The notes under the pieces: model-generated
Database searches by the model: none
What the model saw: the letters and a program-made list of their open reading frames with translations, nothing else
What the model was told of the DNA's origin: nothing
Position numbers and translations under genes: made by a program
Assembly: GCA_040755995.1 (NCBI GenBank)
Contig: JBFMAF010000023.1
Coordinates: 224,001-288,000 of the forward strand
Reading direction: 5' to 3'
DNA length: 64,000 bases
Origin: Acidobacteriota bacterium
Lineage (GTDB): Bacteria; Acidobacteriota; CAIWXX01
In this document: one piece after another, positions 30,715 through 50,369 of the stretch
How positions within the stretch are numbered: the first letter of the stretch is position 1
Layout of the letters: every line of letters starts with the position of its first letter

Positions 30715-31332
30715 ATGCTGCCATTTGAACGGCATCAGTGCGAGGGCGCAACGGAGTCTCATCAACGCGGCGATGTCACTGAGCTGCTGAAAGAATGGCG
30801 CGAGGGGAGCGAGGAGGCGCTGCAGCGGCTGATCCCTCTTGTCTACGGAGAGCTGCGTTCACGGGCCGCACGATACCTGCGGCACGAGCGCGCCGGACAC
30901 ACGCTGCAGCCGACCGCGCTGGTTCATGAAGCGTTTCTCCGCCTCTTCGGGCAGCACCCGGTCGAGTGGCAGAATCGGGCGCAGTTTTTCGGCGTGGCTG
31001 CTCAGATGATGCGTCGGATACTTGTCGATCATGCGCGATCCAAGTACGCCGGGAAGCGCGGCGGCGTGTGCATTAAGCTGGACGTCGAGTCGGTAGAGGA
31101 TGCTCCTGCCGGAGCTACTACGGTCGATGTTGTCGCCGTCGATCAGGCGCTGAGCAGGCTTGCGGCGCTCGATCCCGATCAGGCGCGAGTCGTCGAGCTC
31201 CGGTTCTTCGGTGGATTGACGGTCGAAGAAACGGCGGAAGTCATCGGATGTTCGCCGCGGACCGTGAAGCGCGAGTGGCGTTCGGCCAAGGCGTGGCTCC
31301 ACAGGGAGCTGTCAGGAGCAGGAGCACGTTGA
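30715..31332 (+). CDS. ECF sigma factor, kinase-associated (ECF43/TIGR02999-like)
   Basis: 'HTLQPTALVHEAFLRL', 'MRRILVDHAR', 'LRFFGGLT.EE.A', 'TVKREW'. Confidence 0.92.
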   Translation: MLPFERHQCEGATESHQRGDVTELLKEWREGSEEALQRLIPLVYGELRSRAARYLRHERAGHTLQPTALVHEAFLRLFGQHPVEWQNRAQFFGVAAQMMRRILVDHARSKYAGKRGGVCIKLDVESVEDAPAGATTVDVVAVDQALSRLAALDPDQARVVELRFFGGLTVEETAEVIGCSPRTVKREWRSAKAWLHRELSGAGAR

Positions 31333-33908
31333 CACCCGAACGATGGTCGCGCGTGAAAGCGCTCTTCGACGAAGCGTGTGAGCGGCCGGACGGGGAGCGT
31401 GCTGCGTTTCTCGACGATGCCTGCCCGGGGGACACCGAGTTGCGAGGCGAGGTCGAGGCGCTCCTCCGCTCCGATGAGGCAGCGCCCGGATTCCTCGACA
31501 CTCCCGCCGCCGTGACAACCGGCGCCGTCACGGATCGTCCCGTGAGGCAGGCCGGGCCGTACAGCATAGTGCGCGAGATCGGTCGAGGCGGAATGGGTGC
31601 TGTCTACCTGGCGACCCGCGCCGACAGCGAGTACAGGAAGGACGTTGCGTTGAAGATCCTGCCGCTCGGTCTCGACTCCGAGCTCGCGCAGGAGAAGTTT
31701 CGGAACGAGCGGCAGATCCTCGCTTCGCTCCAACACCCCTACATCGCGGCGCTCCACGACGGCGGAACCACCGAGGATGGCCTGCTCTACTTCGTCATGG
31801 AGCATGTACAGGGGGAGGATGTCCTCACCTACTGCGATCGCAGAAGGCTCTCGATCACCGCGCGCCTCGAGCTGTTCCGAAAGATCTGCTCGGCCGTCCA
31901 GTACGCTCATCAGAACCTTGTCATCCACCGCGACATCAAGCCCGGGAACATCTTCGTGACCGAGTCCGGCGATCCGAAGCTGCTCGATTTCGGCATCTCG
32001 AAGCTCGTCGATCCGCGCTCTGGCGGCTCCGAGCTCACCGAGATGTCCTTCCGAGTCATGACGCCTGAATACGCCAGTCCCGAGCAGCTCCGGGGAGACC
32101 GTATTACGACGGCCAGCGACGTGTATTCGCTTGGCGTCCTGCTCTACACGCTTCTGACCGGCTGGCGGCCATACGACGTCTCCGATGCCACTCCCGAGAT
32201 CGTCATCAGGGCGGTTTGCGAGACCGAGCCGGAGCGGCCGAGTCTGGCCGTAGAGCGGCAGGACGCCTCCGCGAGCGCCGCCGAGGCGCGCGCGACAACG
32301 CCGAGCGGCCTGAGGCGCGCGCTCACCGGCGACCTCGACAACATTCTGCGCTTCGCGCTGCGCAAGGAGCCGGAACGCCGGTACCAGTCGGTCGAGCAGC
32401 TCTCAGACGATCTCAGGCGGCACCTGAGCGGCCTGCCGGTAAGGGCCCGCCCAGCCACGCTGAGTTATCGTACGGGGAAGTACATCACAAGGCACAAAGC
32501 GCTCTTCGCGGCCGGCTCGCTCGTGATCGCCACCCTGGTCGGAGGCCTTGTGTCTACATCATGGCAGGCCAGCGTGGCGCGGCGCGAACGGCAGAGGGCC
32601 GAGCGCCGATTCAACGATGTGCGCAAGCTCGCGACCGCGTTCCTCCTCGAGTTCCACGACGCGATCGCGGATCTCGAAGGCGCGACAGCAGCGCGCGCGC
32701 TGGTCGTGAAGAAGGCTATCGAATACCTCGACGACCTCGCCACCGAGGCTGGCGATGACGTGTCGCTGCAACGGGAGCTCGCCGCGGCATACTTCCAGGT
32801 GGCGGTTATTCAAACCGAGACCGGCACCGGTACAGCCGACGAGTCGGAGGCGATACTCGCCAGTTACAAGAAGGCGCTCGCGATTCTCGAAAGGGTGGTG
32901 GAAAGCGGCTCGAAGTCGATCGACGACGTGGCCAAGTTCGCCGATCTGCTTGGCTCGATCTCGAGCTTCCAGTCCCGACAGGGGCGATACGCCGAGGGGA
33001 TCCAGTACGGCAATCGAGCCCTGTCGTATTGCGAGCAGGCGATTGCCGCCCGGCCGGACGACAAGGAGTCCGGCCACGTCATGGCGGCTGTCTACCAGGA
33101 TCTGTCGTACGCGTACGCACAGGCCGGAGACGCGACAAACGCGCTGGCGATGGCCGAGAAGGAGTTGACTCTCTTCGAATCGCTCTCGAAGAAGCACGCT
33201 TCGGACACGCGGTTGACCGCGGGTGTGGCTTTCGGCCATCGAATGGTCGGCGTGGCGCTCAGGGAGCTCGGCCGCCCGGCTGAAGCCGTGGTGCACCACG
33301 AAGCTGCAATCGAGATCGACAAGCGGTTGGCCTCATCGGATCCGACGAATCCACACCTGGCAAGACGGATGTCGCTCGGGCACTCGTATGCGGCTCAATG
33401 CCTGAATGAGATCGGCGATCTGGACCGGGCCTACGTTCACGCGAGGGCCGCGCTCACGCTCCGCGAGACAATGGCGGCATCGGACCAGGGTGGCAGTCGT
33501 CTCAAGCTGCTGGTGGCCGACAGTCGCTGCGTCGAGGCTCAGATACTGGCAGGCCTGGGCCGCGGTCAGGAGGCCCTGGGGGAAGCATCGTTGGCACTCG
33601 AGTGGTTGGAACCCGAGTCAAGGCGTGATCAGGGGGACGTGGAGATCCAGGAAGCTCTTGCCGACGCATACTACAGCATGGCGACAGCTACGGGCGTCAC
33701 TCCGCCGTCAGCCGCGTCGCGGACCGGCAAAAACGATGCGTGCGAGTGGTTCGAGAAGGCGATCGGCGTTTACGATGCGCTCGGTGCGAAAGGTGCTCTC
33801 AGCGTTGCCACCTCAAAGACCCTCGAGAAGGTCAGGAAGAGACGCGATCAGACATGCGGGGCGCCTCGGGATGCGCGATCCGACGCCGTGGATCACCAGG
33901 AGAACTGA
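31329..33908 (+). CDS. Membrane Ser/Thr protein kinase with C-terminal TPR-like region
   Basis: GRGGMG, VALK, HRDIKPGN, DFG, TPEYASPE; TM; helical repeats; TTG start overlapping the sigma stop. Confidence 0.95.
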   Translation: MTPERWSRVKALFDEACERPDGERAAFLDDACPGDTELRGEVEALLRSDEAAPGFLDTPAAVTTGAVTDRPVRQAGPYSIVREIGRGGMGAVYLATRADSEYRKDVALKILPLGLDSELAQEKFRNERQILASLQHPYIAALHDGGTTEDGLLYFVMEHVQGEDVLTYCDRRRLSITARLELFRKICSAVQYAHQNLVIHRDIKPGNIFVTESGDPKLLDFGISKLVDPRSGGSELTEMSFRVMTPEYASPEQLRGDRITTASDVYSLGVLLYTLLTGWRPYDVSDATPEIVIRAVCETEPERPSLAVERQDASASAAEARATTPSGLRRALTGDLDNILRFALRKEPERRYQSVEQLSDDLRRHLSGLPVRARPATLSYRTGKYITRHKALFAAGSLVIATLVGGLVSTSWQASVARRERQRAERRFNDVRKLATAFLLEFHDAIADLEGATAARALVVKKAIEYLDDLATEAGDDVSLQRELAAAYFQVAVIQTETGTGTADESEAILASYKKALAILERVVESGSKSIDDVAKFADLLGSISSFQSRQGRYAEGIQYGNRALSYCEQAIAARPDDKESGHVMAAVYQDLSYAYAQAGDATNALAMAEKELTLFESLSKKHASDTRLTAGVAFGHRMVGVALRELGRPAEAVVHHEAAIEIDKRLASSDPTNPHLARRMSLGHSYAAQCLNEIGDLDRAYVHARAALTLRETMAASDQGGSRLKLLVADSRCVEAQILAGLGRGQEALGEASLALEWLEPESRRDQGDVEIQEALADAYYSMATATGVTPPSAASRTGKNDACEWFEKAIGVYDALGAKGALSVATSKTLEKVRKRRDQTCGAPRDARSDAVDHQEN

Positions 33909-33989
33909 AAGCCGCCTGGTCTCATTACTCCGACGCCCTTGACCGGGCCAAGAACCACTTGGGGCGGGGCATATGTCGGCACGACGCCG
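33537..33989 (+). repeat. 453-bp diverged direct repeat, copy 1 (copy 2 at 37014-37466)
   Basis: Ungapped match covering the kinase 3' end and the 3' end of the convergent gene. Confidence 0.9.
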
Positions 33990-34691
33990 GATTGACGGAT
34001 AGCTGAGCACAACGAAGGTGTCTCCGTAGACCTCTGCTATCCAGCGCAGGCTGAAATCCTGTGTCGACACAGCCAGCCGATTGGTGCGGGCAAGGAACTC
34101 CAGAAGGAGCGGATCGGTATGCGGTTCCCCGCTGGCGCGTTTGAGTGTCAGAAAGACGCAGCCCTCGTACTGTCGCTTGCCGACGATCGTGAGACGGCTC
34201 CCGGGCGGAACCGGCTCGTACGGAAGGCAGATCTCGGTTGTCAGGTCTCTCGACAACGACTGTTCTCGGGACCGGATCTGCGCAGTGAGATCGGGGACCT
34301 CTCCCAGGTATTCTACTACTCTGCTGAAATCGTCGTTGACCGGCACGTCCGCGAGCTGCCTTGAGAGCGCTTGATATTCCTCGGGGACGAGTGCCACCAC
34401 GTGATCAGGATCGGGAAGGGCGACCAGGATGTGGGCTATGCACGTAACCGGCGCCCGCCACGTATGGAGAACGAGATACCTCCGGCCGCTCGTTGGGATC
34501 GCCTGTACAACCGAAAAGCTCTCGCAGGCTCGATCGGCCGGGTGGCGGAGGCGCACATTGACTCGATCCCCATCTCGCCAGCGGTCGACGATCTCGAGCG
34601 TGAGCCCCGGTTCGGCGTCGAAGCTCAGCGTCCTCAGGAAGATCGTGCAGTCTTCGACGGAAATCGACGGCTGATCACTCATGCCTGGCAC
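33990..34691 (-). pseudogene. Hypothetical gene, apparently 3'-truncated by running into the repeat
   Basis: ORF 33813-34691; the last ~60 codons are out-of-frame repeat sequence. Confidence 0.45.
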
Positions 34692-34919
34692 CGATGCCTG
34701 TCAGGGGCTCGAACGACATGACGACCTCCCATGTGCTCCTCTCGCCCTCTTCCGTCTCGCAGTGAGCTCAGCGTGGAATCGGGCTCATGACGGCGCGAAG
34801 CAGTTGTTCAGAAGTCGTGGCTGACACAAGGCCCGGCGGGAACGCGCGCAGGTGATATCGCCCGGATGGCCCAGTCAGCCGGTAGTTTCCAGTCGAGTCG
34901 GTGATGCTGATCGGAGACA

Positions 34920-35032
34920 GTGAGCTCGGAGAGCTGATAGTAGAGATCGGGCTCGAGCCAGCCGGCTTCGATCACGTTGGCGATGTGAGACGAGTGAGTG
35001 AGCTGACGGCCGGCCTCCGCGTTCAGGCACAC
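34920..35032 (-). repeat. 113-bp diverged inverted repeat (other copy 39221-39333)
   Basis: Both encode CLNAEAGRxLTHSxHIANVIExGWLEPxxYYQxSE. Confidence 0.85.
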
Positions 35033-35326
35033 CGCGCGGACGCGGTCGCAACAAAGGCACCCAGGATGACATTGATGTCAGAGAACCCATCGCCCGGTGG
35101 AACAGCGAAGAGTGTTGGCAATGCGATGGCGGCGCATCTGCCAGTGGAAGTAGCATTGCCTACTACTTTAGTAGTAGGGCACCCGGCGTTGGTGATCGCG
35201 CGCCGAAGTGCGATTATGACGGCTTCGGTACGGCCTCGCGCTCCGAGCTCCCACAGCCCGCACCTGTGAAAGCGGAAGGGTCTATCGACACCAGGGACCG
35301 CCACGGCCCCCAGTGTCGCATCATGC

Positions 35327-36505
35327 TCAATCATTGTCGACAATGGTCCCGACTGCTGTCAGATCTGGCGCAGTCAAGCCTCTCGGGCTGCTGAGCCGTA
35401 TCTGAAAAATCTCGTTCGGTTCGTCTGCAGTGTCCTTGCAAATCATTACCGAGATCGTCTTGGATCTTTCGCCGGGCTGGAATGTGACTGTGCCACTGCT
35501 GCCTGAGTAGTCACCGTTATAGCATATGCCGATTCTCAAAGAGGAGGTTGCAGTTCCACTGACGCAAGCGTAATCGATCGAGCAGCCGTTGTGATTGGAG
35601 TCGGAGAGCGACAGTGTAAAGACCGCAGTGCTGTACAATATCCCTATTCGATCGCTCGGCTCGGTGACAGACACGTCGCCTATCGAGAGGACCGGGACCA
35701 CCGGCTCGTCGTTGATGATGATGTGCAGACCCGATAGTGAGCCGGGTTGAATGGTTGCGTTGACTGCATTGGACAAGACAACCCTGAACTGCTCGTTGGA
35801 TTCGCTCCATGTGTCGCCGCAGACAGGGACGTTGATCGTTTGCGAGGAAACACCAGGCGCGAACCTCAAGGTTCCGTTCGTATTTACGTAATCCACACCA
35901 GCGCCGCAGGATGCACCTCCAGTGGCGGTATCATTGCTGGTTGCGTAGACCACGGAGACTTCTCGCCCACTCGGAGGGGCGAGAGTTACGGTGAAGGTCG
36001 AGTTAGTCTGCCCGGAATTGCCCTCGTTCCGGTTGACACCGCCGATGCTGAGGGACGGAGGAGGATCGTCGTCGAGAATCGTTGCCTGCCCCTGTGGGTC
36101 TGCGATCGAGGCCCCGCTGGGTGAGCTGAGGTAGACCGTGAAGGTTTCATCTGCTTCGTCCAGCGTGTCCCCGCAGACTGCGATCGCAATCGTCTTGGTT
36201 ATCTCTCCGGTGGAGAAGGTAAGGCTGCTGCTCATGCGGAGGTAGTCGCAACTGCCGCTGCACGAGTTCCCGCCCTCCGTTGCCGTGCCGCCCGACGTGC
36301 TGAACATCACGGATGAGCTCGTACTGGATTCGGAGCGGATCACCGAGAAGGTCGCGACCGTGGTGCCGCCGTTCCCTTCGGATACCGTCACATCATTTAT
36401 GCCAATCTGTGGATAGGCAAGAGCCGCCACTGGCAGATGCACCAGCAAGAACGACACGAAAGAGACGATCAGTTTGCCGCAGGTCTTAGCTCCCATTTTC
36501 TTCAC
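35327..36505 (-). CDS. Secreted protein with three Calx-beta domains
   Basis: Signal peptide; three repeats of 'I.DV.V.EG...TAT.G...DY...L.F..GE..KTI.V.VC.D..DE..E.F...TI.DDD'. Confidence 0.92.
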   Translation of the reverse strand: MKKMGAKTCGKLIVSFVSFLLVHLPVAALAYPQIGINDVTVSEGNGGTTVATFSVIRSESSTSSSVMFSTSGGTATEGGNSCSGSCDYLRMSSSLTFSTGEITKTIAIAVCGDTLDEADETFTVYLSSPSGASIADPQGQATILDDDPPPSLSIGGVNRNEGNSGQTNSTFTVTLAPPSGREVSVVYATSNDTATGGASCGAGVDYVNTNGTLRFAPGVSSQTINVPVCGDTWSESNEQFRVVLSNAVNATIQPGSLSGLHIIINDEPVVPVLSIGDVSVTEPSDRIGILYSTAVFTLSLSDSNHNGCSIDYACVSGTATSSLRIGICYNGDYSGSSGTVTFQPGERSKTISVMICKDTADEPNEIFQIRLSSPRGLTAPDLTAVGTIVDND

Positions 36506-36524
36506 TCCTCGTATGTCAAGAATC

Positions 36525-36889
36525 TAGTGGATCTCGTCCGGTGTGTAGTCAGATCAGATCTGAACGCTGATCGTCTTCGAGCGTTCGCTGGGGGAGAACA
36601 CGAGGGTTCCCCGCGTCCCGATGTAATCGCTGCCGCTGCCGCGCGCGCCGGAACCCTTGATTGTCTGACCCTGTGGACCGGCGGGCACGGTCAAGTACTC
36701 AACCGTGGATGTTCTCCCGGTTTCGGAGCGGGTGAGCGTGAACGTCGCGGTGGTGCTGCTGATATTCCCTTCCTGCACCGTGATGTCGCTGGCCGTGATG
36801 ACCGGCTCTGCTGAGGCCGGGCTCGGCATACACAATAGCAGATACGTTGCAAACGTGACGGGAATCCTTCCGAGCGGAATGCTTCGCAT
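36525..36889 (-). pseudogene. Truncated Calx-beta gene, paralogue of 39467-40648
   Basis: Same signal peptide and first domain; TGA replaces TGC in 'VQICPDYT'; remainder missing. Confidence 0.85.
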
Positions 36890-36934
36890 GTCTTTGCCTC
36901 CTCTGGGCTCGTGGTTCAACCTCATCATCCCCTG

Positions 36935-36962
36935 ACGCGGAAACCGGCGGGAGATGGGGCCA
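36935..36962 (-). promoter_or_regulatory. Putative ECF promoter, copy 1
   Basis: TGGCCCC-N16-CGCGT, ~45 nt before ATG 36889. Confidence 0.7.
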
Positions 36963-37013
36963 GCGGCGGCCCGAGTCGGGCAGATTTGCGGCGTTCCCAC
37001 CGCGGGTTCCTGC

Positions 37014-37385
37014 GCTCAGATCCTGGCAGGCCTGGGCCGCGGTCAGGAGGCTCTGCGGGAAGCATCGTCAGCTCTCGAATGGCTGGAACCCGAGTCGAGG
37101 CGTGATGAGGGGGACGTGGAGATCCAGGAAATTCTTGCCGACGCATACTACAGCATGGCGACAGCTACGGGCGTTGCTCCGCCGTCAGCCGCGCCGCGGA
37201 CCGGCAGGAACGATGGGTGCGAGTGGTTCGAGAAGGCGATCGGCGTTTACGATGCGCTCGGTGCGAAAAGTGCTCTCAGCGTTGCCACCTCAAAGACCCT
37301 CGAGAAGGTCAGGAAGAGACGCGATCAGACATGCGGGGCGCCTCGGGATGCGCGATCCGGCAGCGTGGATCACCAGGAGAACTGA
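37014..37385 (+). pseudogene. 3' remnant of a paralogue of the Ser/Thr kinase
   Basis: Near-identical to the kinase C-terminus (AQILAGLGRGQEAL...VDHQEN). Confidence 0.9.
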
Positions 37386-38395
37386 AAGCCGCCTGGTCTC
37401 ATTACTCCGACGCCCTTGACCGGGCCGAGAACCACCTGGGGCGGCGCATATGACGGCACGACGCCGCTTCCGATGACGTTTGTGACAGTGCCCGCAACCA
37501 GCATCGTCGTGAACTTCGAGGCGAACCATGCGCTGAATGTGTCGATCCGCTGAGAGCCCTCCGGCCAGTCCTTGGCGGCGCCGATCCTGGACTTGATCCT
37601 TGCGGCGATCATTCCAGCCGATAGGTCGCCGGCGCTTTGCGTGAGGCTCGCGAGCGGTGTGGGCAGGTTCGGCGTGGGCGGGGCGGAGGCTCCCGGAAAG
37701 GCGGCGAAGGCCGGGTACCACGCCAGTCCGGGCACGCGCACTGACGCCTGCCATTGCTCCCAGCCTTCGCGCAGGGCGAGCGCGAAGCCGCGTGAGACGT
37801 CTGCCGGGGTCCCCGCGCGCATCATCGATTCGGACACGAGCGATTCCGGGAACGTGCCGGCCACCCGCCCTCCCCATGCCATCGCTCCGTCGATTCGCAC
37901 ATCCACCAGCACAGCCGCACCCTTCCACAGATTCACGGCGCTGCTACTGCCCTCCATGGCGGACTGTGCCCAGCCGCTCCAGTCCGCAAATGCCTTGGCC
38001 GTGACAGGCGTCCGGTTGTCGCTGCGTTCGATCGCGGTCACCTCGAGCAGGCTGTTCGGATCGACCTCGGCATGGAACGTGTGCTGTCCGGCCAGAGCGG
38101 TCCACGAGGCAAACACCTCGAGTGCCGTCCCTGCAGTGACGCCTGTCTTGGTATCAGATTTCACTAGCGCCAGGTTGTCCGCGTAGATCACCCACATCAC
38201 ATCCCGCACGCCGCTGCCCTTCGTTTCGATCTTGAGGCTCAGCTTCTGACTGTCGCCCGGCTTCGTGCCGCCGCTTATCGTGAGCCCCTTGGCGGCCACC
38301 GTGAACGAGCTGGCGGCACCGCACGAGGCGGCCGCTGCCAGCATCACGAGCACCGCGGAGATCGTGGTAGTGCCTCCAATACAACTTCTGTTCAA
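37370..38395 (-). CDS. Secreted protein with N-terminal CARDB-like domain and unknown C-terminal domain
   Basis: SD AAGGAG + TTG; signal peptide; 'W.A.AG.HTF.AEVDP...E....DN'. Confidence 0.8.
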   Translation of the reverse strand: MNRSCIGGTTTISAVLVMLAAAASCGAASSFTVAAKGLTISGGTKPGDSQKLSLKIETKGSGVRDVMWVIYADNLALVKSDTKTGVTAGTALEVFASWTALAGQHTFHAEVDPNSLLEVTAIERSDNRTPVTAKAFADWSGWAQSAMEGSSSAVNLWKGAAVLVDVRIDGAMAWGGRVAGTFPESLVSESMMRAGTPADVSRGFALALREGWEQWQASVRVPGLAWYPAFAAFPGASAPPTPNLPTPLASLTQSAGDLSAGMIAARIKSRIGAAKDWPEGSQRIDTFSAWFASKFTTMLVAGTVTNVIGSGVVPSYAPPQVVLGPVKGVGVMRPGGFQFSW

Positions 38396-38479
38396 GCGAA
38401 GCTCCTTTCCGTATCGAGCGCAAGCGAGTCGATCCCTCCGGTCCGGCCGTCGCCTCCGCGCCACCCTGCCTGCTTCATG

Positions 38480-38507
38480 ACGCGGATTCAACGCGGAAAC
38501 GGGGCCG
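38480..38507 (-). promoter_or_regulatory. Putative ECF promoter, copy 2
   Basis: CGGCCCC-N16-CGCGT. Confidence 0.7.
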
Positions 38508-39394: not shown

Positions 39395-39422
39395 TGGCCC
39401 CATCTCCCGCCGATTTCCGCGT
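39395..39422 (+). promoter_or_regulatory. Putative ECF promoter, copy 3
   Basis: TGGCCCC-N16-CGCGT. Confidence 0.7.
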
Positions 39423-39466
39423 CAGGGGATGATGGGGTGAACCACGAGCCCACAGGAGGTAAAGAC

Positions 39467-40648
39467 ATGCAAAGCATTCCGTCCGGAAGGATTCTCGTCA
39501 CGTTCGGAACGTATCTGCTGCTGTGTATTCCGAGACCAGCCACAGCACAGCCGGTCATCACAGTAAACGACATCAGCGTACAGGAAGGGAATACCGGCAC
39601 CACCACGGCGACGTTCACGTTCGTCCGCTCCTACACCGGGCAGACCTCCTCGGTTGCGTACGCGACCCAACCCCTCCGCACTTCGCTGATGGATACCGTC
39701 GAGGGTTCCGGCGCGTGCGGGGGCGGCAGCGATTACATCGGCGCGCGGGGAACCGTCTCGTTCACCTCGAGCGAACGCTCGAAGACCGTCAACGTTCAGA
39801 TCTGCCCGGACTACACGGTGGAAAGCCACAACGAGATGTTCCTTCTCACCCTGAGCTCTCACACGGGAGCCAAGCGCGGCACCCTCTATGCGAAATGCAC
39901 AATCGTGGACGATGACAGATTGCCGTACGTCACCATCGAGGATTATGGACGCCTCGAAGGCAGCTCCAGTTCGTCCGCTTTCTGGTTCCCAATAACGCTC
40001 GAGAAGAGCAGCACGCAGCGGGTAACCGTCTGGTTCGACGTGCGGTCGGTAACCGACCTTCCGCATGGGACGCCCGACACGGCCACTGCTGGAACATCAT
40101 GCGGAGGATCCACGGACTACTGGGGTGCCACTGGCCGGTCAATCGTCTTCAGCCCTGGGGAGACACGGAAGTCCATCGACGTAAACGTCTGCGGCGATAC
40201 GACGATCGAGCCGGAGGAGACGTTCAGCGTCGTGTTGACGCGGGCCGAGGGCGCCATCCCGCGAGGCACTGGGCGCGGGACAATCTACAACGATGACCTG
40301 CCAGTCCTGTCAGTCCTAGACTTCAACGTGAATGAAGGCGGCACCGCCTATTGCCAATTGAGACTCTCTTCCACCAATCACCACGGCTGCTATGTCGACT
40401 ACCGAGTCATTCAAGGAACTGCCTACCCCTCGGACATGTACCAGGCGTGTTCGAATGCGAGTGATGTCTGGAACAAAAGCGGAACTGCCAGCTTCAGTGA
40501 CGGCACAGATTACATCATGATCGAAATACCCACCTGCGGGGATACGGTTCGCGAGGGAAACGAAACATTCCAGATTCATTTCACCAACCCAAGAGGACTA
40601 TCAGTGCCAGACACTTTGGCGGTCGGCACGATCATCGACAACGACTGA
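39467..40648 (+). CDS. Secreted protein with three Calx-beta domains
   Basis: SD AGGAGG, signal peptide, Calx-beta repeats, ends 'AVGTIIDND'. Confidence 0.92.
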   Translation: MQSIPSGRILVTFGTYLLLCIPRPATAQPVITVNDISVQEGNTGTTTATFTFVRSYTGQTSSVAYATQPLRTSLMDTVEGSGACGGGSDYIGARGTVSFTSSERSKTVNVQICPDYTVESHNEMFLLTLSSHTGAKRGTLYAKCTIVDDDRLPYVTIEDYGRLEGSSSSSAFWFPITLEKSSTQRVTVWFDVRSVTDLPHGTPDTATAGTSCGGSTDYWGATGRSIVFSPGETRKSIDVNVCGDTTIEPEETFSVVLTRAEGAIPRGTGRGTIYNDDLPVLSVLDFNVNEGGTAYCQLRLSSTNHHGCYVDYRVIQGTAYPSDMYQACSNASDVWNKSGTASFSDGTDYIMIEIPTCGDTVREGNETFQIHFTNPRGLSVPDTLAVGTIIDND

Positions 40649-41423
40649 ATCCACTGGCATTAGAACGTACTCGGCGGGGAAAGATCGAATCCCCGCCGAG
40701 CAATGCATGCCGATTGCCGGGTGAACCGGGGCCGGCAGGCCAACACCTCAAGCGTGACGACGGCCGGACTTGATCGTGCTGGTTCGAGTAGCGACTGATT
40801 GGTTCGACGTGCCTCTCCGAAGCTCGCTCCCGCTGTGATGGAGCGTCCGGGAGGAACGGGAACCGCGATGCACCGTACTTTCCATTCATGACCATCGCGA
40901 AGGTCGCCTTTCCATCGCGCGAGGGTTGGCTCACGGGTGTGCTCGCCATGCCGGTGTTCTCCAAGCCGGACGATCACCATCGGACTCAGACTCGAGCTCG
41001 TCGGCTTGGCCCCGCGCGCACTCGAATCCCGCGTCAGTGAATGAGGGGCGGAACCAGAAGACCGTCAGCTCGTCGACCACAGTGACGATCACCGCCGGAC
41101 CGGGATCCGGCTCGAAGAGTGCAACCATCGTCGTCCGGCATTAGCAGGCTTCCCGGGCCGCCGAGACAGCGCATTGTCGGCGACATTGCTGAGTGGCAGT
41201 ACATCGAGAGCAACGATTGCAGGCGTTTGACCTTCCACCACCCCCAGCATGTGCTCCCAATTGGAACGGGATCAGTCTGAGGGCGCGACGGAGTCTCATC
41301 AGCACGGCGATATCACGAAAGGGGCCGCTGCGTGCGGCCACCGCATCGAGGGTGGCCGCGGTTAGGATGCCAGGCGGAACCATGTTGGACCGTAGATGGG
41401 TTCAGTCGCCGGTGGTCGGCACC

Positions 41424-41451
41424 TGGCCCCCTTTTCTCCCTCCTTGCGCGT
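41424..41451 (+). promoter_or_regulatory. Putative ECF promoter, copy 4
   Basis: TGGCCCC-N16-CGCGT. Confidence 0.7.
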
Positions 41452-41483
41452 CTTTCAATGTGGGGCGAACCCAGGAGGACAAA

Positions 41484-42857
41484 ATGAGAAGACTCTTCCT
41501 TGTCGCGACGACTGTGTGCCTGACGTGGAGCGCCGATACCGCGCCCGCCGCTGAGTTCAATATCGCCGACGGTGACGTCGCGGGGCTGGTTGCGGCCGTC
41601 AACACCGCTAACGCCAACAATCAGCCCGACGTAATTCACCTCGCCGCAGGGGGAACTTACACCCTGACGGTGATCCAAGAGACCAACGATGGTGGAAACG
41701 GCTTGCCGGTGATCATGCTCGACACGAGCACCGCGAACACGCTTACCATCGAGGGGCACGGTGCCACGCTGATGAGGAGCGCGGACGGAGGCACACCGAG
41801 CTTTCGGATTCTGAAGCAAGGAAACGGAGCGCTCATCCTGAACGACCTGACGGTGGCCGGCGGGTTCACACCCCACGAGGGTGGGATCTTCCACCTCTCG
41901 AGCGGTATCACATCGATACAGCGATGCACGCTCACCGGCAGCCACTCCGATAATAAGGGTGAGGCCCTCTACATAGGAAACAGCTGCAACGTTACCCTCG
42001 TGAACTGCACCCTCTCCGGGAACTCAAGTGCGAAGACATCGGACCTGAGCAATTCGGCAGGCGGCGGGTGCATCAATACACGGGGTACCCTTACGCTGCG
42101 CCACTGCACGGTGGCGAACAACCTGCACACCGGCCCGGCCGCATCGGGAGGCGGAATCAGGGTGTGGGGAACCCTGACGCTCGTCAACACAGTCCTCGGC
42201 AACAACTCCGACCAGTCCGGCCCGAATGATCTTGAGCGCGTGAGCGGCACGGTGAACTCGACCAACAGCCTGATCGAGGCCCTTGCTGCAGGGACGATCA
42301 ACGGCACTGACGTCGGGAATATCACAGGCCTCGACACCGTCCTCGGGCCTCTGGCCGACAACGGAGGACTCACGATGACGCATGCCCTCCTCCCGTCCAG
42401 TCCGGCGATCGACGCCGCGAGCGCCGCCGACTGCGAGAGTCAAGATCAACGAGGCCTCCCCCGGCCCTCCGGCCTCGGCTGCGACATCGGCGCATATGAG
42501 CTCATACAAGAACCCGATCTCGTTCCCGATCTGCAGTCCACCGTGAAGCTCGATAGCAACCTGAAGTCATTCGTGGCCCGCTTCAAGGTGTTGAACGACG
42601 GTTTCACGCCGGCTGGACCGTTCACGGTCGGCTTGTACCTTTCCGCGGATGCCACCTTCGGCCGGCGCGACAGGCTGCTCAAGAAGCTCAGCGTCGGCGC
42701 TATCGGGCCGTCAGGTGCGAGCAAGTTGCTGCGGGTGAAATACCAGGGATCTCGATCGATCCTGGGCAAGTACGTGATCATAGCCGTCGACACGACGAAC
42801 GCGGTCGACGAGGGGAGCGAAGACAACAACGTCCTGGTGAAACTCCTGTCAAAATAG
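41484..42857 (+). CDS. Secreted beta-helix (choice-of-anchor Q type) protein with C-terminal CARDB-like domain
   Basis: Signal peptide, GGI repeats, 'LGPLADNGG.T.THAL...SPAIDA...DQRG..RP....CDIGAYE', 'VD..NAVDE..EDNN'. Confidence 0.9.
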   Translation: MRRLFLVATTVCLTWSADTAPAAEFNIADGDVAGLVAAVNTANANNQPDVIHLAAGGTYTLTVIQETNDGGNGLPVIMLDTSTANTLTIEGHGATLMRSADGGTPSFRILKQGNGALILNDLTVAGGFTPHEGGIFHLSSGITSIQRCTLTGSHSDNKGEALYIGNSCNVTLVNCTLSGNSSAKTSDLSNSAGGGCINTRGTLTLRHCTVANNLHTGPAASGGGIRVWGTLTLVNTVLGNNSDQSGPNDLERVSGTVNSTNSLIEALAAGTINGTDVGNITGLDTVLGPLADNGGLTMTHALLPSSPAIDAASAADCESQDQRGLPRPSGLGCDIGAYELIQEPDLVPDLQSTVKLDSNLKSFVARFKVLNDGFTPAGPFTVGLYLSADATFGRRDRLLKKLSVGAIGPSGASKLLRVKYQGSRSILGKYVIIAVDTTNAVDEGSEDNNVLVKLLSK

Positions 42858-42989
42858 CGAGGCGCGGCCTCAGACCGATGAAGCATGCGAGGCCGCTCCG
42901 GCCGCGCCTCGCGGAGAGAGTGGAGAGTGGGCAGCTCCCGTGTGACGATGACGCACCGCTCCGAAAATTTGACTCAATCGCGATATGTT
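42855..42989 (+). repeat. 135-bp structured element starting at a stop codon, copy 1
   Basis: Ungapped ~81% match (25 mismatches by hand) to the reverse complement of 57526-57660. Confidence 0.85.
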
Positions 42990-43034
42990 CTTCGCCTCAG
43001 GCCATTCTAGGGCGGGTTCTGCACCCCTGACCGA

Positions 43035-44192: not shown

Positions 44193-44448
44193 ATTTTAGA
44201 ATCGTCCGACAATTATGAAGTATACTTGTTGCTCGAATGCGGTTCAACAGGGCCCCTGTGTGAAGTTCCGGAGGGAGCAATGATCGGTTCCTGGCGGTGA
44301 GCTCATTGCGGCTCCTCGATCATGCAGGCCCCCTGCGCCGGCGACTCGCGCGATAGAACCCGGTTAGCTGGCAGCCGGAATTCGGCACTGAATACCAGAC
44401 TCAATCTGCGTCATCTCCTGCCTCTCCACTACCCCTGTTACCGATAGG

Positions 44449-44531
44449 CAGACTCATCACAAGAATGATGTGAATACACGATTGTTCCCTACCCTTGAGA
44501 GCTCCGATAATCAGTCGGGCGGTTTGATACA
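44449..44531 (+). repeat. Second copy of the ECF-gene upstream region (first copy 30633-30715)
   Basis: Shared CAGACTCATCAC.AGAATGATGTGAATA...GATAATCAGT.GGGCGGTT.GATAC. Confidence 0.85.
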
Positions 44532-44552
44532 CGGGGAAAGAGGCTGGAATGA

Positions 44553-44580
44553 CGGCCCCGAATCACCGGGATTCCCGCGT
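44553..44580 (+). promoter_or_regulatory. Putative ECF promoter, copy 5
   Basis: CGGCCCC-N16-CGCGT. Confidence 0.7.
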
Positions 44581-44638
44581 TCATAGACGGGGGTTGTAAG
44601 GCGTGTGGCACAAGCCATGACGACTGGAGGAAAAGAAC

Positions 44639-44870
44639 ATGGGAATCAAGACCAGCGGCAAACTGCTCGTGTCGTTCGTTTCGTTCCTACTGGTGCATCT
44701 GCCAACCTTGGCGTCTGCCCTACCATCTTTCTCCATCAATGACGTAACGGTGGAAGAAGGGAACCTCGGCTATAGCAACGCGGAGCTTCGAGACGGCGAG
44801 GCAGTGGGCACCATCGTAAATGATGACTGATGATCCAGTAATACCCGTCCTCTCCATGGGTGACGTGTCT
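44639..44870 (+). pseudogene. Internally deleted Calx-beta gene, paralogue of 35327-36505
   Basis: Same signal peptide, 'INDVTVEEGN' fused to 'AVGTIVNDD', then shifted-frame 'DPVIPVLSMGDVS'. Confidence 0.8.
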
Positions 44871-45012
44871 TGCAGTGACTTGATGATGCCGAGGGGTGTC
44901 GCACTCACTCTCGTTGTCCATGCTGGAGTTACTACCTCAGTAGTAACTCGGACACGCGGTACGAAGAGCAGCTTTCTGCGTCCAAGACTAATCGAGTAGA
45001 GGAGAAGTGAAA

Positions 45013-46641
45013 ATGGAACATCGAACGGTGATCGTAGCGATTCTGTGCTCGCTTCTGTGCATGATCCCGGCGGCGGCCGGCAATCTGTGGGTGCGTACAT
45101 TCGATACGAGCGGGTCCGCGGATGAGGCGCGGTCGGTCGTGGAGACTGCGGATGGAGGTCTGTGCTTCCTCGGGAAGACGAGCCCTGAGAGTGCGTTACG
45201 CATCGTGAAGATAAGCTCGACCGGCGTACTTGAATGGCAGCGATCCTATGGGTACGGGTCGGCCTTCTTCACGGTGCGCAGGCTTATCCAGACGAGTGAC
45301 GGCGGGTTTGCCGTGGCTGGCGATGTCATGGGGGACAAGGGGCTCCTCCTGCGATTCAGCGGCTCGGGATCCCTGCTCTGGCAGCGCATGTATGGCGGCA
45401 CGTCGTCCGGCTTCTATGATGTGGAGGAGACGGATGACGGAGGCTTCATCCTGGCAGGCAGCACCGGCGACTACGACGTGGGGAGCGGCGACACCTGGGT
45501 GGTCAAGACGGACTCGTCAGGCGAGGTCGTGTGGGCGAAGGCGTATGGCGGCACCGGTGCCGAGGAACATGGCAGCGCGGAGCAGACGAGCGACGGCGGC
45601 TACATAGTCTCCGCACAGAGCGATTCGTTTGGGAGCGCAACCGGGATACTGTGGCTGCTCAAGCTCGACTCTACAGGCACGCCGGTATGGCAGAGGCAGT
45701 ATGACGGCGGAGATTGGATGGACGGATTCGCTCGACCGACAGCAGAGGGTGGATACATCGTCTCTGGCTGGATTGGCGGCGCAGCCAGAGATGCGATTCT
45801 CATGAAGCTCACATCGAGCGGGAGCGTGTCATGGGCCAGGACCTACGGCGGCGGCGATGACGATGTTGCAAGCCCGCACCCCGCCACCTGCAGCGACGGC
45901 GGCTTCCTCGTCGCAGGAACCACGCGATCCTTCGGCGCAGGCGGCCGGGACGCCTGGATGTTCAAGACCGATTCATCCGGTTCGCTGATGTGGCAACGGA
46001 GCTATGGATCCAGCGGTGATGACGACGTCCGTGACGGCCCAATAGAGACCGGCAGCCACGGGGCGGCGCTGGCCGGTACGTACAGACCGGCATCGGTTTC
46101 TGATGCATTCCTGCTGCGCACGACTTCCAGCGGCGACGTCGACCCATCCTGCGGCTCGACGGTCCAGATCGGTGGCGCTACCGCCTCAACCTTCACACCG
46201 GCTGTTTCAGATACGACGGCGACCGTAACTCCGATTTCGCTCACGGCCATCCCGGCCGGGATGTCGGAAACGGTCCTGGCGATGACCACCGCCAACATAT
46301 GCACATCACCAGACCTGGCCGATCTCACGGGCTCCTTCACCAAGCTCAGGAGGAAGGGGTCGGCCATCAAGGTGACATTCAGCTGCCGCAACATTGGAAC
46401 GCTCGCCAGTGGCAGCTTCAATCTGAAGATCTATCTCGCGGGGAGCCCGACGGTGGGCCGGAAGGCCAACCTGATTGCGACGAAATCAATCGGGCCGCTC
46501 GCCCCCGGTGCGACCGCTGCGATCAAGGCGAACGGTCAGAAGACGAGCAAAACGAAATACGTCGTGGCAGTCATCGACACAACGAGCGCTGTTGTCGAAT
46601 CCGATGAAGGGAACAACAAGATCGCCGCGTCGGTGCCGTAG
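45013..46641 (+). CDS. Secreted beta-propeller-repeat protein with C-terminal CARDB-like domain
   Basis: Repeats 'T.DGG...AG...D.W..K.DSSG...W.R.YGG'; C-terminal 'ID....V.ESDEGNN'. Confidence 0.88.
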   Translation: MEHRTVIVAILCSLLCMIPAAAGNLWVRTFDTSGSADEARSVVETADGGLCFLGKTSPESALRIVKISSTGVLEWQRSYGYGSAFFTVRRLIQTSDGGFAVAGDVMGDKGLLLRFSGSGSLLWQRMYGGTSSGFYDVEETDDGGFILAGSTGDYDVGSGDTWVVKTDSSGEVVWAKAYGGTGAEEHGSAEQTSDGGYIVSAQSDSFGSATGILWLLKLDSTGTPVWQRQYDGGDWMDGFARPTAEGGYIVSGWIGGAARDAILMKLTSSGSVSWARTYGGGDDDVASPHPATCSDGGFLVAGTTRSFGAGGRDAWMFKTDSSGSLMWQRSYGSSGDDDVRDGPIETGSHGAALAGTYRPASVSDAFLLRTTSSGDVDPSCGSTVQIGGATASTFTPAVSDTTATVTPISLTAIPAGMSETVLAMTTANICTSPDLADLTGSFTKLRRKGSAIKVTFSCRNIGTLASGSFNLKIYLAGSPTVGRKANLIATKSIGPLAPGATAAIKANGQKTSKTKYVVAVIDTTSAVVESDEGNNKIAASVP

Positions 46642-46677: not shown

Positions 46678-48045
46678 ATGTGTCGAAGAGGAGCAGTTCG
46701 ATATCTCGTGGTCGTGTGCTCAGTTGTGCTTGCTTCGCCGACGGCGTCGGGTTCGGGAGCGGAGGAGCCCCAGGCGCTGATCTCTGCGAGTCCCGATGAG
46801 AACGGTACAGATCGCTTCAGAATCATGGCCGAGGTCAAGCTGCATCTGAGGGACTCCGCGGCGGTCGAGGTCAAGGACGCTTTTCCGTTTCCACCGGATT
46901 TCATACCGCCCGGCCAGGACGGCGTGTATCTGCGCACGCCGGATGCCGGGACGTCGCTCGATATTTCCAATCTGGCGCTGATCGGGGAGGCCGATCTGAC
47001 GCCGGATATCAAAGGGCGCGTGCGCGTTCACATCCTCGACCTGTACAACCGCAACCCGACCTCCTCGGACGACCGCATCGCGTTGCGGGAGGCATGGGTA
47101 CAGTTCGGTCACCGCTATGATCCGCTCAAGGCGACGCCGCGTTCATCTTTTTATGCGCTCCTGGGCAAGGCGCCGCGTTTCAACCGCCAGACCACCCGTC
47201 GTCTGGAGAGCTACGGCCTCTGGGGGACGGCGGTGGGGCGGTTGGAGCAGGTGCAGTTGCAGCTCGGGGGATCGACGGGGAAAGCGGTCTACTGGCGTGT
47301 CCATCTGGCCAACGGGAATCCGGTGTTCTTCCGTGACCCGAATGCACTGGCGGGCGACAACGGGACGCCGGAGCGAGTCCCGGGCGCGGTTGATCCGATC
47401 TACCAGTCCGGGTTTCCGATTCTCTACGACACGAAGGCCGGCGACGTCAGTGGTCGATTCGAAGGTGGGGCGGGCTTGGGTGTCCGCGTCCTCGGCGCGG
47501 ACGAGAAGACGGGTATCGACGTATTGGGCTGGTACTTCTCGAGGCGCCTCGCTGACCGCGCGCGTATTCAGGGTACGTACTACGGTGGGGAGATCGAGCT
47601 GCTCCAGGGGGCAGGGATTTCGCTCCCGATTACGAGTCGCGACAAGAAAGAGCGGGGCCTGAACGCGGAAGGGAAATGGCGGGGGATGCATGTCTTTGCA
47701 CAGTATATCCGACAGGACATCGCCGGGCTGGTGCGAGACGGTGTAGAGATCGAGACCGCGTACCGGCTCCCGATCAACGGGCTCTTCGCCCTCGGTGACT
47801 CACCTCTATTCAACTGGATTCAGCCGGCTTTTCGCTATTCGACTATCGACAACAAGTTCGAGGCCCCTGTGCAGTTTGTCGCGCCATCGGTCGCGTGGGA
47901 CTGGGACAAGTATGACATCGGCGTGCGCGTAGGTGTCTATCCCGGAATCGATGTGACGGCTGAATACGCCCGTAACGAAATGCACACCAGAGCCGGACCG
48001 AAGCATCCGGACGAGTTGCTGGTGACACTCCGCGCGGCCTTCTGA
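46678..48045 (+). CDS. Putative outer-membrane beta-barrel protein
   Basis: Signal peptide, amphipathic strands, C-terminal 'VTLRAAF'. Confidence 0.7.
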   Translation: MCRRGAVRYLVVVCSVVLASPTASGSGAEEPQALISASPDENGTDRFRIMAEVKLHLRDSAAVEVKDAFPFPPDFIPPGQDGVYLRTPDAGTSLDISNLALIGEADLTPDIKGRVRVHILDLYNRNPTSSDDRIALREAWVQFGHRYDPLKATPRSSFYALLGKAPRFNRQTTRRLESYGLWGTAVGRLEQVQLQLGGSTGKAVYWRVHLANGNPVFFRDPNALAGDNGTPERVPGAVDPIYQSGFPILYDTKAGDVSGRFEGGAGLGVRVLGADEKTGIDVLGWYFSRRLADRARIQGTYYGGEIELLQGAGISLPITSRDKKERGLNAEGKWRGMHVFAQYIRQDIAGLVRDGVEIETAYRLPINGLFALGDSPLFNWIQPAFRYSTIDNKFEAPVQFVAPSVAWDWDKYDIGVRVGVYPGIDVTAEYARNEMHTRAGPKHPDELLVTLRAAF

Positions 48046-48152: not shown

Positions 48153-48180
48153 TGGCCCCGAATCACCGGGATTCGCGCGT
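48153..48180 (+). promoter_or_regulatory. Putative ECF promoter, copy 6
   Basis: TGGCCCC-N16-CGCGT. Confidence 0.7.
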
Positions 48181-48221: not shown

Positions 48222-50369
48222 ATGGACACGAGATCGGCGGTGAACAGGTTGGTGCGCGTGGGGGTGCTGGCCGTCCCGTGCTCAGCGATGCTGCTTGGGG
48301 CCGAGCTCGGTTCGACGCTGACGGTCGGCGCCAGCTTCGCCGGCGGGGAGTTGATCAAGCAGGGGGGGCACATCGAGCTGAGTCTCAGCCGCCCCCTGGG
48401 ACCGACCGATGGCAGGCTCGCGGTGTTCCTGAACGAGATGGACCTTACGCCCCTCTTTACACTTGAAGGTACGAAGTTCACCATCCGTCCCACGTTTCCG
48501 AGTCTTCCCACAGGCGAGCACACCATGATCGTTTACCTTTTTGCGCCGGATGAATCATGGCGGGAAGTGGCGAGGTTCCCATTGAGGATCGAAGAGACAC
48601 CGTCTGAGCCGGTGGTCCTTGAGCCGGCAGTTCAGGCCGGGGGAACCACCAGCCAATGGTCGGCCACATGGGTGCCTTCCGTGACGCTGAACGTCGCGCA
48701 CCAATCCACACTCGAATACTACCCCGACACCAACCGCCCTGAACGCACTCGCTTCACTGACGTATCCCTCCAGGCCAGCGTGCAAGCAGGCCTGGCCCGA
48801 GGCCTGTTCAATACTCAGACCCAGTTCGACATCATGGGTGCCTCATTCGAGCAACAGGCACTCCGATACGGAGAAATGGGGGATAGCGCGCCGCAGGTTG
48901 ACCTGTCGAGCTACCTGGCCTCGGCCGAAATCAACAAGGTGAAAGTACAGTTGGGGCACACCTCCTTTGGCGGCCACCGCTATCTCATCAACAGCTTCAA
49001 CAGTCGTGGCATCACCCTGACCGTGCCGATTGCCGGGTGGGCGGACGTGTCCTTTTCAGGGATGAATGGCACCAGCATCGTAGGATGGGACAACTTCAGC
49101 GGGCTCAGCCGGCGCAAGCATCAGGTCTACGGCGGGACGGTCGGCCTCGAGCTCGTGCCAAAAAGGCCCGGCGGGGCGCGACTCGAGTTGAGCGCGCTCC
49201 ACGGATCGCTCCTGCCCGTGAGCAACTACAACCAGAGCAACCTCAACGATGCTGAGACCAGCCGAGGCTACGGAGCTCGGATCCTCGCCAGTGATACCGC
49301 GCAGCGTCTGCGCCTGGAAGCTGGCATCGCGCGAAGCCGTTTCACGAATCCCTCGGACCCTCTCCTGGACCAGGGAACAACGGTTGTGCCCGTACGGGCT
49401 GCGACAGGCTTGGCCCACTACCTCGACGTCAGTTATCAGATGTTGAGAGACCGTCCGGTGACCGAGCAGTGGATGTCCGGCTTGACTCTCGCCTTGCGCT
49501 ACAGCCGCGTCGATCCTCTCTATCGAAGCACAGCAGTTTTCGCGCAATCGGACCGGTTCGATACTCAGTACGAGCTTTCGGGAAACGTCGGCGACATCAC
49601 GGCGACGGGTAGTTACACGCGCGGGAACGACAATCTCGCTGGGGTCACATCAGTCCTGAAGACGCTCACCCGGCGCGCGAACGGGCAGTTCGCGGTTCCG
49701 CTCCCGGCGGTGTTCAGCGTCTCCGGTCTCCGGGGCCAGCTGTTTCCGCGAGTGGGCTACTCGTACGACCGTACCCACCAGTATGGTGCGAGCATGCCGA
49801 CCGGCGGTGACTTCGATCCCTCGAGCGTTCCCGATCAGGTGAGCACGAATCAGATCCTGACCGCCGATTGGCAGCTGGCCAACTGGCGGTTCGGCTATCG
49901 CCTGAACCAGTCCTTTCAGGACAACCGCCAGATCGGCCGGGCCGGGTCGGACTTGAAAAACCGGGTCAACAGTATGACCCTCGGAGTGACGCCTCACAAG
50001 AAATTGGATGTCAGCTTCGATCTGAGCTCCGAGCGCTCCCTCAACTACGAGACGGGTGCGCGCTATCAGATCTGGCGCAGCACCGCGGCTCTCAGTCTCC
50101 AGACCACACTCCGTTCAATGCTGACACTGACCATCGGCACGACCTTCGAAGGCGATGTGGCGAAGTCGAACGACAGCCGCAACATCGACCTCGACGCCCA
50201 ATGGGCCGCCGGGTTCAGCAAGCAGAAGGATCGCTTCCGCAAGTTCGACACGCAGTTCTTCATTCGCTACGCACAGCGATATGCCAGCTCGTACGACCAT
50301 GTTTTCATCACGGAAAACCTGACCAGACTGCAGACCGTGAATGCCGGGCTGAAGATTACTTTCTTCTGA
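48222..50369 (+). CDS. Large putative outer-membrane beta-barrel with N-terminal Ig-like domain
   Basis: Signal peptide, 'LPTGEHT..V' Ig-like segment, long strand-rich region, C-terminal 'GLKITFF'. Confidence 0.7.
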   Translation: MDTRSAVNRLVRVGVLAVPCSAMLLGAELGSTLTVGASFAGGELIKQGGHIELSLSRPLGPTDGRLAVFLNEMDLTPLFTLEGTKFTIRPTFPSLPTGEHTMIVYLFAPDESWREVARFPLRIEETPSEPVVLEPAVQAGGTTSQWSATWVPSVTLNVAHQSTLEYYPDTNRPERTRFTDVSLQASVQAGLARGLFNTQTQFDIMGASFEQQALRYGEMGDSAPQVDLSSYLASAEINKVKVQLGHTSFGGHRYLINSFNSRGITLTVPIAGWADVSFSGMNGTSIVGWDNFSGLSRRKHQVYGGTVGLELVPKRPGGARLELSALHGSLLPVSNYNQSNLNDAETSRGYGARILASDTAQRLRLEAGIARSRFTNPSDPLLDQGTTVVPVRAATGLAHYLDVSYQMLRDRPVTEQWMSGLTLALRYSRVDPLYRSTAVFAQSDRFDTQYELSGNVGDITATGSYTRGNDNLAGVTSVLKTLTRRANGQFAVPLPAVFSVSGLRGQLFPRVGYSYDRTHQYGASMPTGGDFDPSSVPDQVSTNQILTADWQLANWRFGYRLNQSFQDNRQIGRAGSDLKNRVNSMTLGVTPHKKLDVSFDLSSERSLNYETGARYQIWRSTAALSLQTTLRSMLTLTIGTTFEGDVAKSNDSRNIDLDAQWAAGFSKQKDRFRKFDTQFFIRYAQRYASSYDHVFITENLTRLQTVNAGLKITFF

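Follow-up and report, generated by a model that had tools for sequence, protein, structure and literature searches.

A two-part motif as the probable target promoter of a kinase-linked ECF43-type sigma factor in an Acidobacteriota bacterium

We analysed a 64,000-nt stretch of DNA (the window) from an Acidobacteriota bacterium of the lineage CAIWXX01 (GenBank assembly GCA_040755995.1, contig JBFMAF010000023.1, positions 224,001 to 288,000 of the forward strand). It carries a gene for an extracytoplasmic function (ECF) sigma factor of the ECF43 type, a gene for a Hanks-type Ser/Thr kinase directly behind it, and a cluster of copies of the two-part motif YGGCCCC-N16-CGCGT. Judging from the sequence, with a probability of roughly 0.8, the motif is the -35/-10 promoter of this sigma factor, which the kinase would switch on, and drives the local genes for predicted exported and outer-membrane proteins. 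The original prediction had likewise taken the adjacent ECF sigma factor as the reader of the motif, and three results now support it: the same frame is found beside foreign sigma genes, its bases co-vary with three residues of the sigma factor, and the local sigma factor is unique in these residues among 12 paralogues.

Motif copies in the window

The motif had seven exact matches in the window (Table 1), compared to a mean of 0.06 and a maximum of 1 in 100 dinucleotide shuffles. All seven were clustered and non-coding, with two boxes at a fixed spacing, and six of them preceded a start codon in the sense orientation, one copy being orphaned. The six copies listed originally were all recovered at their coordinates and strands, and a seventh at 41007-41034 (+) had been missed. 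They had been placed about 30-85 nt upstream of six start codons; the gaps between motif end and start codon measured 45, 84, 44, 32, 58, and 41 nt for the copies at 36935, 38480, 39395, 41424, 44553, and 48153, respectively, a range of 32-84 nt.

Both boxes were invariant over five spacer types that agreed at just 3-8 of 16 bases. The leader just downstream was common to the copies at 36962, 39395, 41007, and 41424, with up to 14-16 of 20 bases shared, indicating that these four probably descend from one cassette in which the spacer drifted and the boxes were kept. Unrelated spacers had been taken to mean that duplication alone does not explain the copies; the spacer types do differ, but the four with a common leader are less independent than that implies. 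A pyrimidine-purine step occupied the predicted -1/+1 positions in all seven copies. No autoregulatory or divergent motif copy was found at the local sigma gene; elsewhere, divergent sites within 400 nt were common (66 of 162 foreign sites, described below). A scan for the sigma-70 consensus gave 3 sites versus 3.9 in shuffles.

The sigma factor and the kinase

The local sigma factor matched PF07638 (1.8e-58) and showed no Sigma70_r2 match in the Pfam family search. Its ECF43-type label rests on the TIGR02999 domain, the kinase gene at position +1, and the replaced sigma-2.2 motif. With residues counted from the ATG at 30715 and the register set against E. coli RpoE, Q65-P-T67-A68 replaced D45-V-P-D48 of RpoE, so that the acidic sigma-2.2 motif is replaced and a Thr stands at the phospho-position. 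Thr occupied the corresponding position in 248 of 262 comparison sigma rows. Residues R101, D105, R182, and K185 corresponded to Asn80, Asn84, Gly168, and Arg171 of RpoE, respectively. A PDB sequence search with the sigma factor returned two weak matches only, and no ECF43 structure was among them.

The catalytic motifs of the kinase were complete (GRGGMG, VALK, HRDIKPGN, DFG, and TPEYASPE). A single hydrophobic segment (residues 391-409, a 19-mer with a mean of 2.0) was followed by a weak TPR region, the matches of which (about 1e-4) lay below the Pfam cut-off. The genome contained 12 full PF07638 paralogues and 68 TIGR02937 matches, and up to 22 kinase-linked ECF sigma copies per genome were present among relatives.

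The same frame beside foreign sigma genes

The upstream regions of 80 TIGR02999 (ECF43-type) sigma loci were subjected to a blind word-pair count in which no window data were used. CGCGT with TG 23 bases upstream was among the top words, which included TGAT-N19-CGCGT, GAGCC-N18-GCGT, and TGGCC-N18-CGCGT, the last as its reverse complement. Adding 100 further loci gave a set of 180, with 30 short loci, mostly duplicates, left out. In this set, TG-N21-CGCGT had 100 non-coding, sense-strand upstream sites in 60 of the 180 loci, compared to 11-37 at 12 other gaps. The -35 element was repeated within a locus: 33 of 56 site pairs shared at least three of the four variable bases (shuffled mean 8.9, maximum 21 in 2000 shuffles). 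The background-corrected consensus showed T-tracts in the spacer and, in the -10 box, a T as the fifth base.

A prospective set of 120 metagenome loci was chosen solely by the protein motif RTVKR[ED]W, and 119 of them were confirmed as sigma genes. Dropping 40 of these, which had only 300 bases on each side, left 79 loci. In a blind count of the RTVKR[ED]W loci, TGGC-N19-CGC ranked first among the words of its size, and TGTCC-N18-CGC ranked close to first in another size class. With the -10 box relaxed to CGC post hoc, after that count, TGGCC-N18-CGC was found in 15 of the 79 loci (1-4 at ten other gaps), TG[GT]CC-N18-CGC in 27 (1-6 at other gaps), and TGAGC-N18-CGC in one. In 176 control sigma rows, TGAGC-N18-CGC was found in 27 (1-12 at other gaps), and there was no peak for TGGCC (8; 3-9 at other gaps) or TG[GT]CC (11). 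The -35 preferences of the RTVKR[ED]W and control sigma factors are a double dissociation.

The same boxes as in the window also stood beside foreign sigma factors of about 60% identity that carry the same residues (loci L009, L024, L159, L211, L257, and L272). Furthermore, a pyrimidine-purine step was present at the predicted start in 103 of 162 foreign sites, compared to 21-77 at seven other offsets. In L039, L047, L049, L131, and L135, where the helix reads RTVLRD, a promoter was also located between the sigma and kinase genes; those sigma factors would thus induce their own kinase, an arrangement that differs from that in the window.

A residue-to-base code

In the numbering that we propose, the motif would read T-36 G G C C C C-30, a 16-nt spacer, and C-13 G C G T-9, with the transcription start 13 nt beyond the first C of CGCGT. 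In this scheme, R182 would set positions -34/-33, K185 positions -32 to -30, D105 positions -13/-12, and R101 position -10. The code was examined with 162 filtered sites in 121 of the 262 sigma rows. By mutual information, the top column was R182 for -34/-33, K185 for -32/-31/-30, and R101 for -10, and the z values for these three columns over the five variable bases were 10.7-21.3. R182 together with K185 went with TG[GT]CC in 20 of 24 rows versus 7 of 97 other rows, with kin among them that are not independent. The base at -10 followed the residue at the Asn80 position, Arg going with G (91/131), Gln with A (12/15), and His with T (9/12). When training was done on rows less than 60% identical, the residue gave the correct base in 0.61-0.69 of cases, compared to 0.36-0.47 for the three nearest relatives and 0.40-0.55 for the majority base. 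On a FastTree tree built without the code columns, 18-19 changes were needed for each residue.

Trained without the window, the code assigned TGGCCC..CGCGT to the local sigma factor alone among the 12 paralogues, with a log2 ratio of 7.3 versus at most 3.3 for the other 11, the training set being enriched for RK sigma factors through the selection of loci. For a second paralogue (C23:42304), the predicted -35 element TGGCGG agreed with five local sites over its first five bases and, for three of these sites, over all six. Its contig C23, at about 35600-44900, carries an ECF43-type sigma gene with five local TGGCG-N18-CGTT sites, which have a different -10 box. Single code-consistent sites, possibly autoregulatory, also lay directly ahead of paralogous sigma genes at C31:131827 (-) and C26:6411 (-) (TGATGAT and TGGCGGA, with CGCGT).

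Distribution in the genome and the choice of sigma factor

A genome-wide motif scan had been called for by the original prediction. It showed no genome-wide enrichment of the exact motif, with 11 copies in the whole 7.7-Mb genome versus 1-9 when the spacer was given any of the 12 other lengths from 10 to 22, and the exact-motif counts in 40 relatives resembled a reversed-pattern control. The motif was enriched locally: given its density outside the cluster, the 11.25-kb span should hold 0.006 copies, compared to the 7 found, although the motif was defined on these same copies, so that this expectation overstates the case and the tests on foreign DNA carry the weight. The four copies elsewhere in the genome, together with one variant that begins with G, were all inside called genes on the opposite strand. 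Any regulon is therefore local, as the remaining four genomic copies are intragenic and oppositely oriented.

The copies might instead be promoters read by another sigma factor of the genome, either one of the 11 other ECF43-type paralogues or a canonical ECF. The number of candidates among the PF07638 and TIGR02937 matches speaks for this, and several paralogues share D105 and R101 and hence the CGCGT box. Among the 58 of 68 sigma-70 matches that were aligned (10 short ones being left out), one other sigma factor, the canonical ECF at C27:15353, also had the helix pair R and K. However, the full R182/K185/R101 set occurred only in the local sigma factor among the 12, all sense-strand copies lay 6-18 kb from its gene and none near a paralogue, and the helix of the C27 sigma factor is unlike, with its sole nearby match intragenic and on the opposite strand. 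We consider a different reader improbable, though the best placed of the alternatives.

Genes downstream of the motif

Genes were called with our own codon-model script, and signal-like N-termini were judged by eye (Table 1). The Calx-beta gene at 35327..36496 is likely read through from copy 1, and the genes at 45013..46641 and 46678..48045 are likely read through from the 44553 copy and in the same manner, respectively, the operon links being presumed, for copy 1 from gene order. No Pfam family was found for the 341-aa protein, and its nearest predicted structures were hypothetical proteins, mostly from Myxococcota (TM 0.50-0.57). The Foldseek matches listed for the 715-aa protein were outer-membrane barrels (TM 0.18-0.35); the fold search gave generic barrels only and no named family. 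The claim that all downstream genes encode secreted or outer-membrane proteins stood in part: signal-like N-termini and two barrels were present, but the first gene behind the copies at 36935 and 44553 is a truncated Calx-beta paralogue in each case, and the copy at 41007 is orphaned. Going by their domains, the targets are candidates for a role in adhesion or a surface coat. Among the genes behind foreign sites, 66 of 146 looked exported by a crude hydrophobicity rule, versus 439 of the 1840 remaining genes of those loci, which is a tendency, not a rule. An AAA_14/DUF4143 ATPase gene at 43035-44192 (-), which has many genomic paralogues and is free of the motif, breaks up the target cluster.

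The 715-aa barrel protein had 248 homologues, and a search of 401 genomes of the phylum found its gene in 10. The genes for the barrel and its 422-aa partner stood side by side in 9 of 9 homologous loci, which came from 8 genomes. No ECF43-type sigma gene was found near the barrel homologues (0 of 9 loci, in stretches of up to about 9 kb on each side), and no credible promoter site was found ahead of them in the 9 loci. The copies at 48153 and 44553 matched in 15 of 16 spacer bases, 3 of 12 upstream bases, and 7 of 20 downstream bases. This single case suggests that the barrel operon may have been captured by a copied promoter core.

Table 1. Motif copies, regulatory genes, and putative target genes in the window
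Feature	Position	Strand	Remarks
ECF43-type sigma factor (TIGR02999), 205 aa	30715..31332	+	TIGR02999 225.7 bits, cut-off 126.15
Hanks-type Ser/Thr kinase, 859 aa	31329..33908	+	PF00069 1.6e-46; start overlaps sigma stop
Promoter copy 1	36935..36962	-	predicted start 36926
Promoter copy 2	38480..38507	-	predicted start 38471
Promoter copy 3	39395..39422	+	predicted start 39431
Promoter copy, absent from the original prediction	41007..41034	+	predicted start 41043; first intact gene behind it at 41484
Promoter copy	41424..41451	+	predicted start 41460
Possible decayed copy, AGGCCCC-N16-CGCGA (two changes)	44326..44353	+	non-coding
Promoter copy	44553..44580	+	predicted start 44589; directly behind duplicate of sigma upstream region
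Promoter copy	48153..48180	+	predicted start 48189; 31-nt core in common with 44553 copy, flanks differ
Calx-beta repeat protein, 389 aa, signal-like N-terminus	35327..36496	-	PF03160 5.6e-44, three stretches
Truncated Calx-beta protein, 111 aa, signal-like N-terminus	36554..36889	-	paralogue of 39467 gene; first gene after copy 36935
341-aa protein, TTG start, signal-like N-terminus	37370..38395	-	downstream of copy 2
Calx-beta repeat protein, 393 aa, signal-like N-terminus	39467..40648	+	PF03160 2.6e-23
Beta-helix / choice-of-anchor Q / CARDB protein, 457 aa, signal-like N-terminus	41484..42857	+	family search
Calx-beta gene remnant, 63 aa	44639..44830	+	73% identical to first 44 aa of 36496 protein
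Repeat protein with C-terminal CARDB, 542 aa, signal-like N-terminus	45013..46641	+	family search
Predicted porin-like barrel, 455 aa	46678..48045	+	nearest named structure cluster OprO/OprP-like, TM 0.66
N-terminal beta domain and large predicted outer-membrane beta-barrel, 715 aa	48222..50369	+	model mean pLDDT 88
422-aa partner, signal-like N-terminus	50379..51647	+	after barrel gene in 9/9 homologous loci

A mosaic region

The region is a mosaic. The end of the kinase gene, the upstream region and 5' end of the sigma gene, and Calx-beta genes are all duplicated in it, and some pieces are related to a locus on contig C10. The sigma upstream region (30383-30715) is duplicated at 44274-44531 with 87-92% identity, in segments at 44274-44322 and 44445-44531, directly ahead of the 44553 promoter. 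A TTGTTC-N18-GATAAT stretch, which may be a housekeeping promoter, is kept in this duplicate. A direct duplication (33537-33970 and 37014-37450) holds the 3' ends of the kinase gene and of the convergent 38395 gene and flanks the block 33970-37014, as if the block had been inserted between its copies. The pieces at 33813-34691 (-), 34900-35050, and 38850-39350 are related to the contig C10 locus (291-297 kb) and include a fragment of the 5' end of a second kinase gene. At 41260-41363, a copy of the sigma 5' end is fused to duplicated sequence from behind the 38480 promoter, which leaves a minus-strand -35 half-site without a -10 box.

Such a decaying region could have left the motif copies as functionless leftovers of local duplications, in keeping with the duplicated segments, the truncated first genes, the orphaned copy, and the leader common to four copies. 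This reading is at odds with the invariance of both boxes over dissimilar spacers, the same boxes beside foreign sigma factors with the same residues, and the fact that most downstream genes are intact, and we regard this explanation as slightly less probable again than a different sigma factor. An operator of a non-sigma regulator, such as the PAS-LuxR protein (29658-30392) that adjoins the sigma locus, is the least probable of all, since the motif is asymmetric and strand-specific and co-varies with sigma residues, and a search of the DNA of the 262 comparison rows at E 1e-8 gave no PAS-LuxR homologue, even though the spacer of two copies contains a small inverted repeat (GAATC-N5-GATTC).

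Comparison with published ECF systems

A promoter read by the local sigma factor agrees in most respects with the ECF code of Todor 2020 (PMC7776599), as far as its Table S1 and mutant data go. The seven-base -35 element (-36 to -30), the 16-nt spacer, C-13 G-12, and the governing positions are the same, Table S1 assigning Gly168 to -33, Arg171 to -32/-31/-30, and Asn84 to -13/-12. The motif bases fit the specificity residues of the sigma factor, as the mutant data give 0.98 for C-31 with Lys171 and 0.62 for CG with Asp84. The small linked regulon also resembles those of the 'local' ECFs described there. The -10 box, however, differs. A canonical CGT-type box has T at -11 and goes with Asn at the Asn80 position, as opposed to C-11 in all seven copies and Arg101 in the local sigma factor, and the -10 base tracks the Asn80 position, whereas Table S1 ties -10 to Phe64/Ser68. 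The original prediction had pointed out that ECF -10 elements often contain CGT. The CGT within this box is not the canonical ECF CGT, as the box is most likely aligned as C-13 G-12 C-11 G-10 T-9. The word ECF43 is absent from the main text of Todor 2020, and the local sigma factor has no Sigma70_r2 match, so the pipeline used there may have missed the family.

The ECF43 entry of Casas-Pastor et al. 2021 (PMC7826278) shares with the window the Sigma70_ECF domain, the kinase at +1, and Ser/Thr in place of DAED, and describes a kinase with one membrane helix and TPRs. In the passages on EcfP/PknT from Vibrio parahaemolyticus (PMC8999054, PMC8103513), the sigma factor likewise lacks the acidic sigma-2.2 motif, has Thr at the third position of the replacing motif, and adjoins a Hanks kinase; its targets concern polymyxin resistance, as opposed to the predicted exported and barrel proteins of the window. 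EcfK/PknS from Xanthomonas citri, as described in the corresponding passages (PMC13147305, PMC6653060), is also a sigma-kinase pair, and it controls neighbouring envelope genes, as proposed here; its QTTA-type motif resembles the QPTA of the local sigma factor. It differs in having further linker phosphosites, and it drives a type VI secretion system, whereas the window locus has no secretion system. The passages on these two systems (PMC8999054, PMC8103513, PMC13147305, PMC6653060) contained no promoter sequence for EcfP and no consensus for EcfK. No matching ECF43 promoter was found in the searchable literature, with Iyer 2020, Bayer-Santos 2018, and Datasets S1-S2 of Todor outside this scope.

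By analogy with EcfP and EcfK, an outside signal at the TPR-like region would activate the kinase, which would phosphorylate Thr67 of the sigma factor. Phospho-Thr67 would restore the negative charge required to bind core RNA polymerase, and the activated sigma factor would read the motif copies and transcribe a strictly local gene set. On this precedent, the local sigma factor is probably activated by the kinase.

Several observations weigh against a kinase-switched sigma factor that reads the motif. The region contains truncated first genes and an orphaned copy. The strict pattern TGGCCC-N17-CGCGT was weak beside the RTVKR[ED]W sigma genes (4 matches in 119 loci, 452 kb, versus 0-2 at other gaps), and the stronger counts there used the box that was relaxed afterwards. 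In 28 short loci from the class to which a gammaproteobacterial genome belongs, gap 21 gave no peak (11 versus 2-13), and the frame is thus not established for the group that holds EcfK and EcfP. As for the code, 141 of the 262 sigma rows had no site passing the filter, background accounts for about one fifth of the sites accepted (21-39 at other gaps), and independent contrasts gave only 2-3 pairs on supported branches, which are too few. The -10 prediction for C23:42304 failed (CGCAT predicted, CGTT found), and the 10 other paralogues had no repeated word fitting the code nearby. Furthermore, the motif is unlike the ECF43 promoter predicted by Casas-Pastor et al. 2021 from 69 proteobacterial proteins, which has GTC at -35 and CAG at -10 according to that entry (PMC7826278). 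Finally, EcfK T51A was reported in the passage on it to be still functional (PMC13147305), so Thr67 may not be the sole switch.

Other elements in the window and genome

Near 3236 (+) lies one copy of an element of about 70 nt that is dispersed genome-wide and has inverted ends (ATACAGCGCGTCA ... TGACGCGCTGTAT). The 11-base end word has 67 genomic copies, and the element is MITE- or REP-like; it adds to the CGCGT background and is unrelated to the promoter. Upstream of the sigma locus, we take 21737-29191 to be a kdp potassium-pump operon, in which KdpD is split into parts, with a PTS IIA-like gene, and 54908-55774 is, from its translation, presumably a KdpB-like fragment.

Implications for kinase-linked ECF sigma factors

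More broadly, ECF43-type sigma factors may each serve a private, insulated channel, using a three-residue promoter code and a non-canonical -10 contact in which Arg, Gln or His at the Asn80 position reads the -10 base and -11 is C. The regulon here may have been assembled by copying, with a 31-nt core placed without its flanks ahead of the barrel-plus-partner operon. We put this forward tentatively, as somewhat short of an even chance. Few kinase-linked ECF sigma factors have been studied so far, and with a residue-to-base code their direct targets can be predicted from the sequence. It would add to the general ECF code a -10 contact that is missing from the published table, and it would explain how a dozen paralogues avoid cross-talk.

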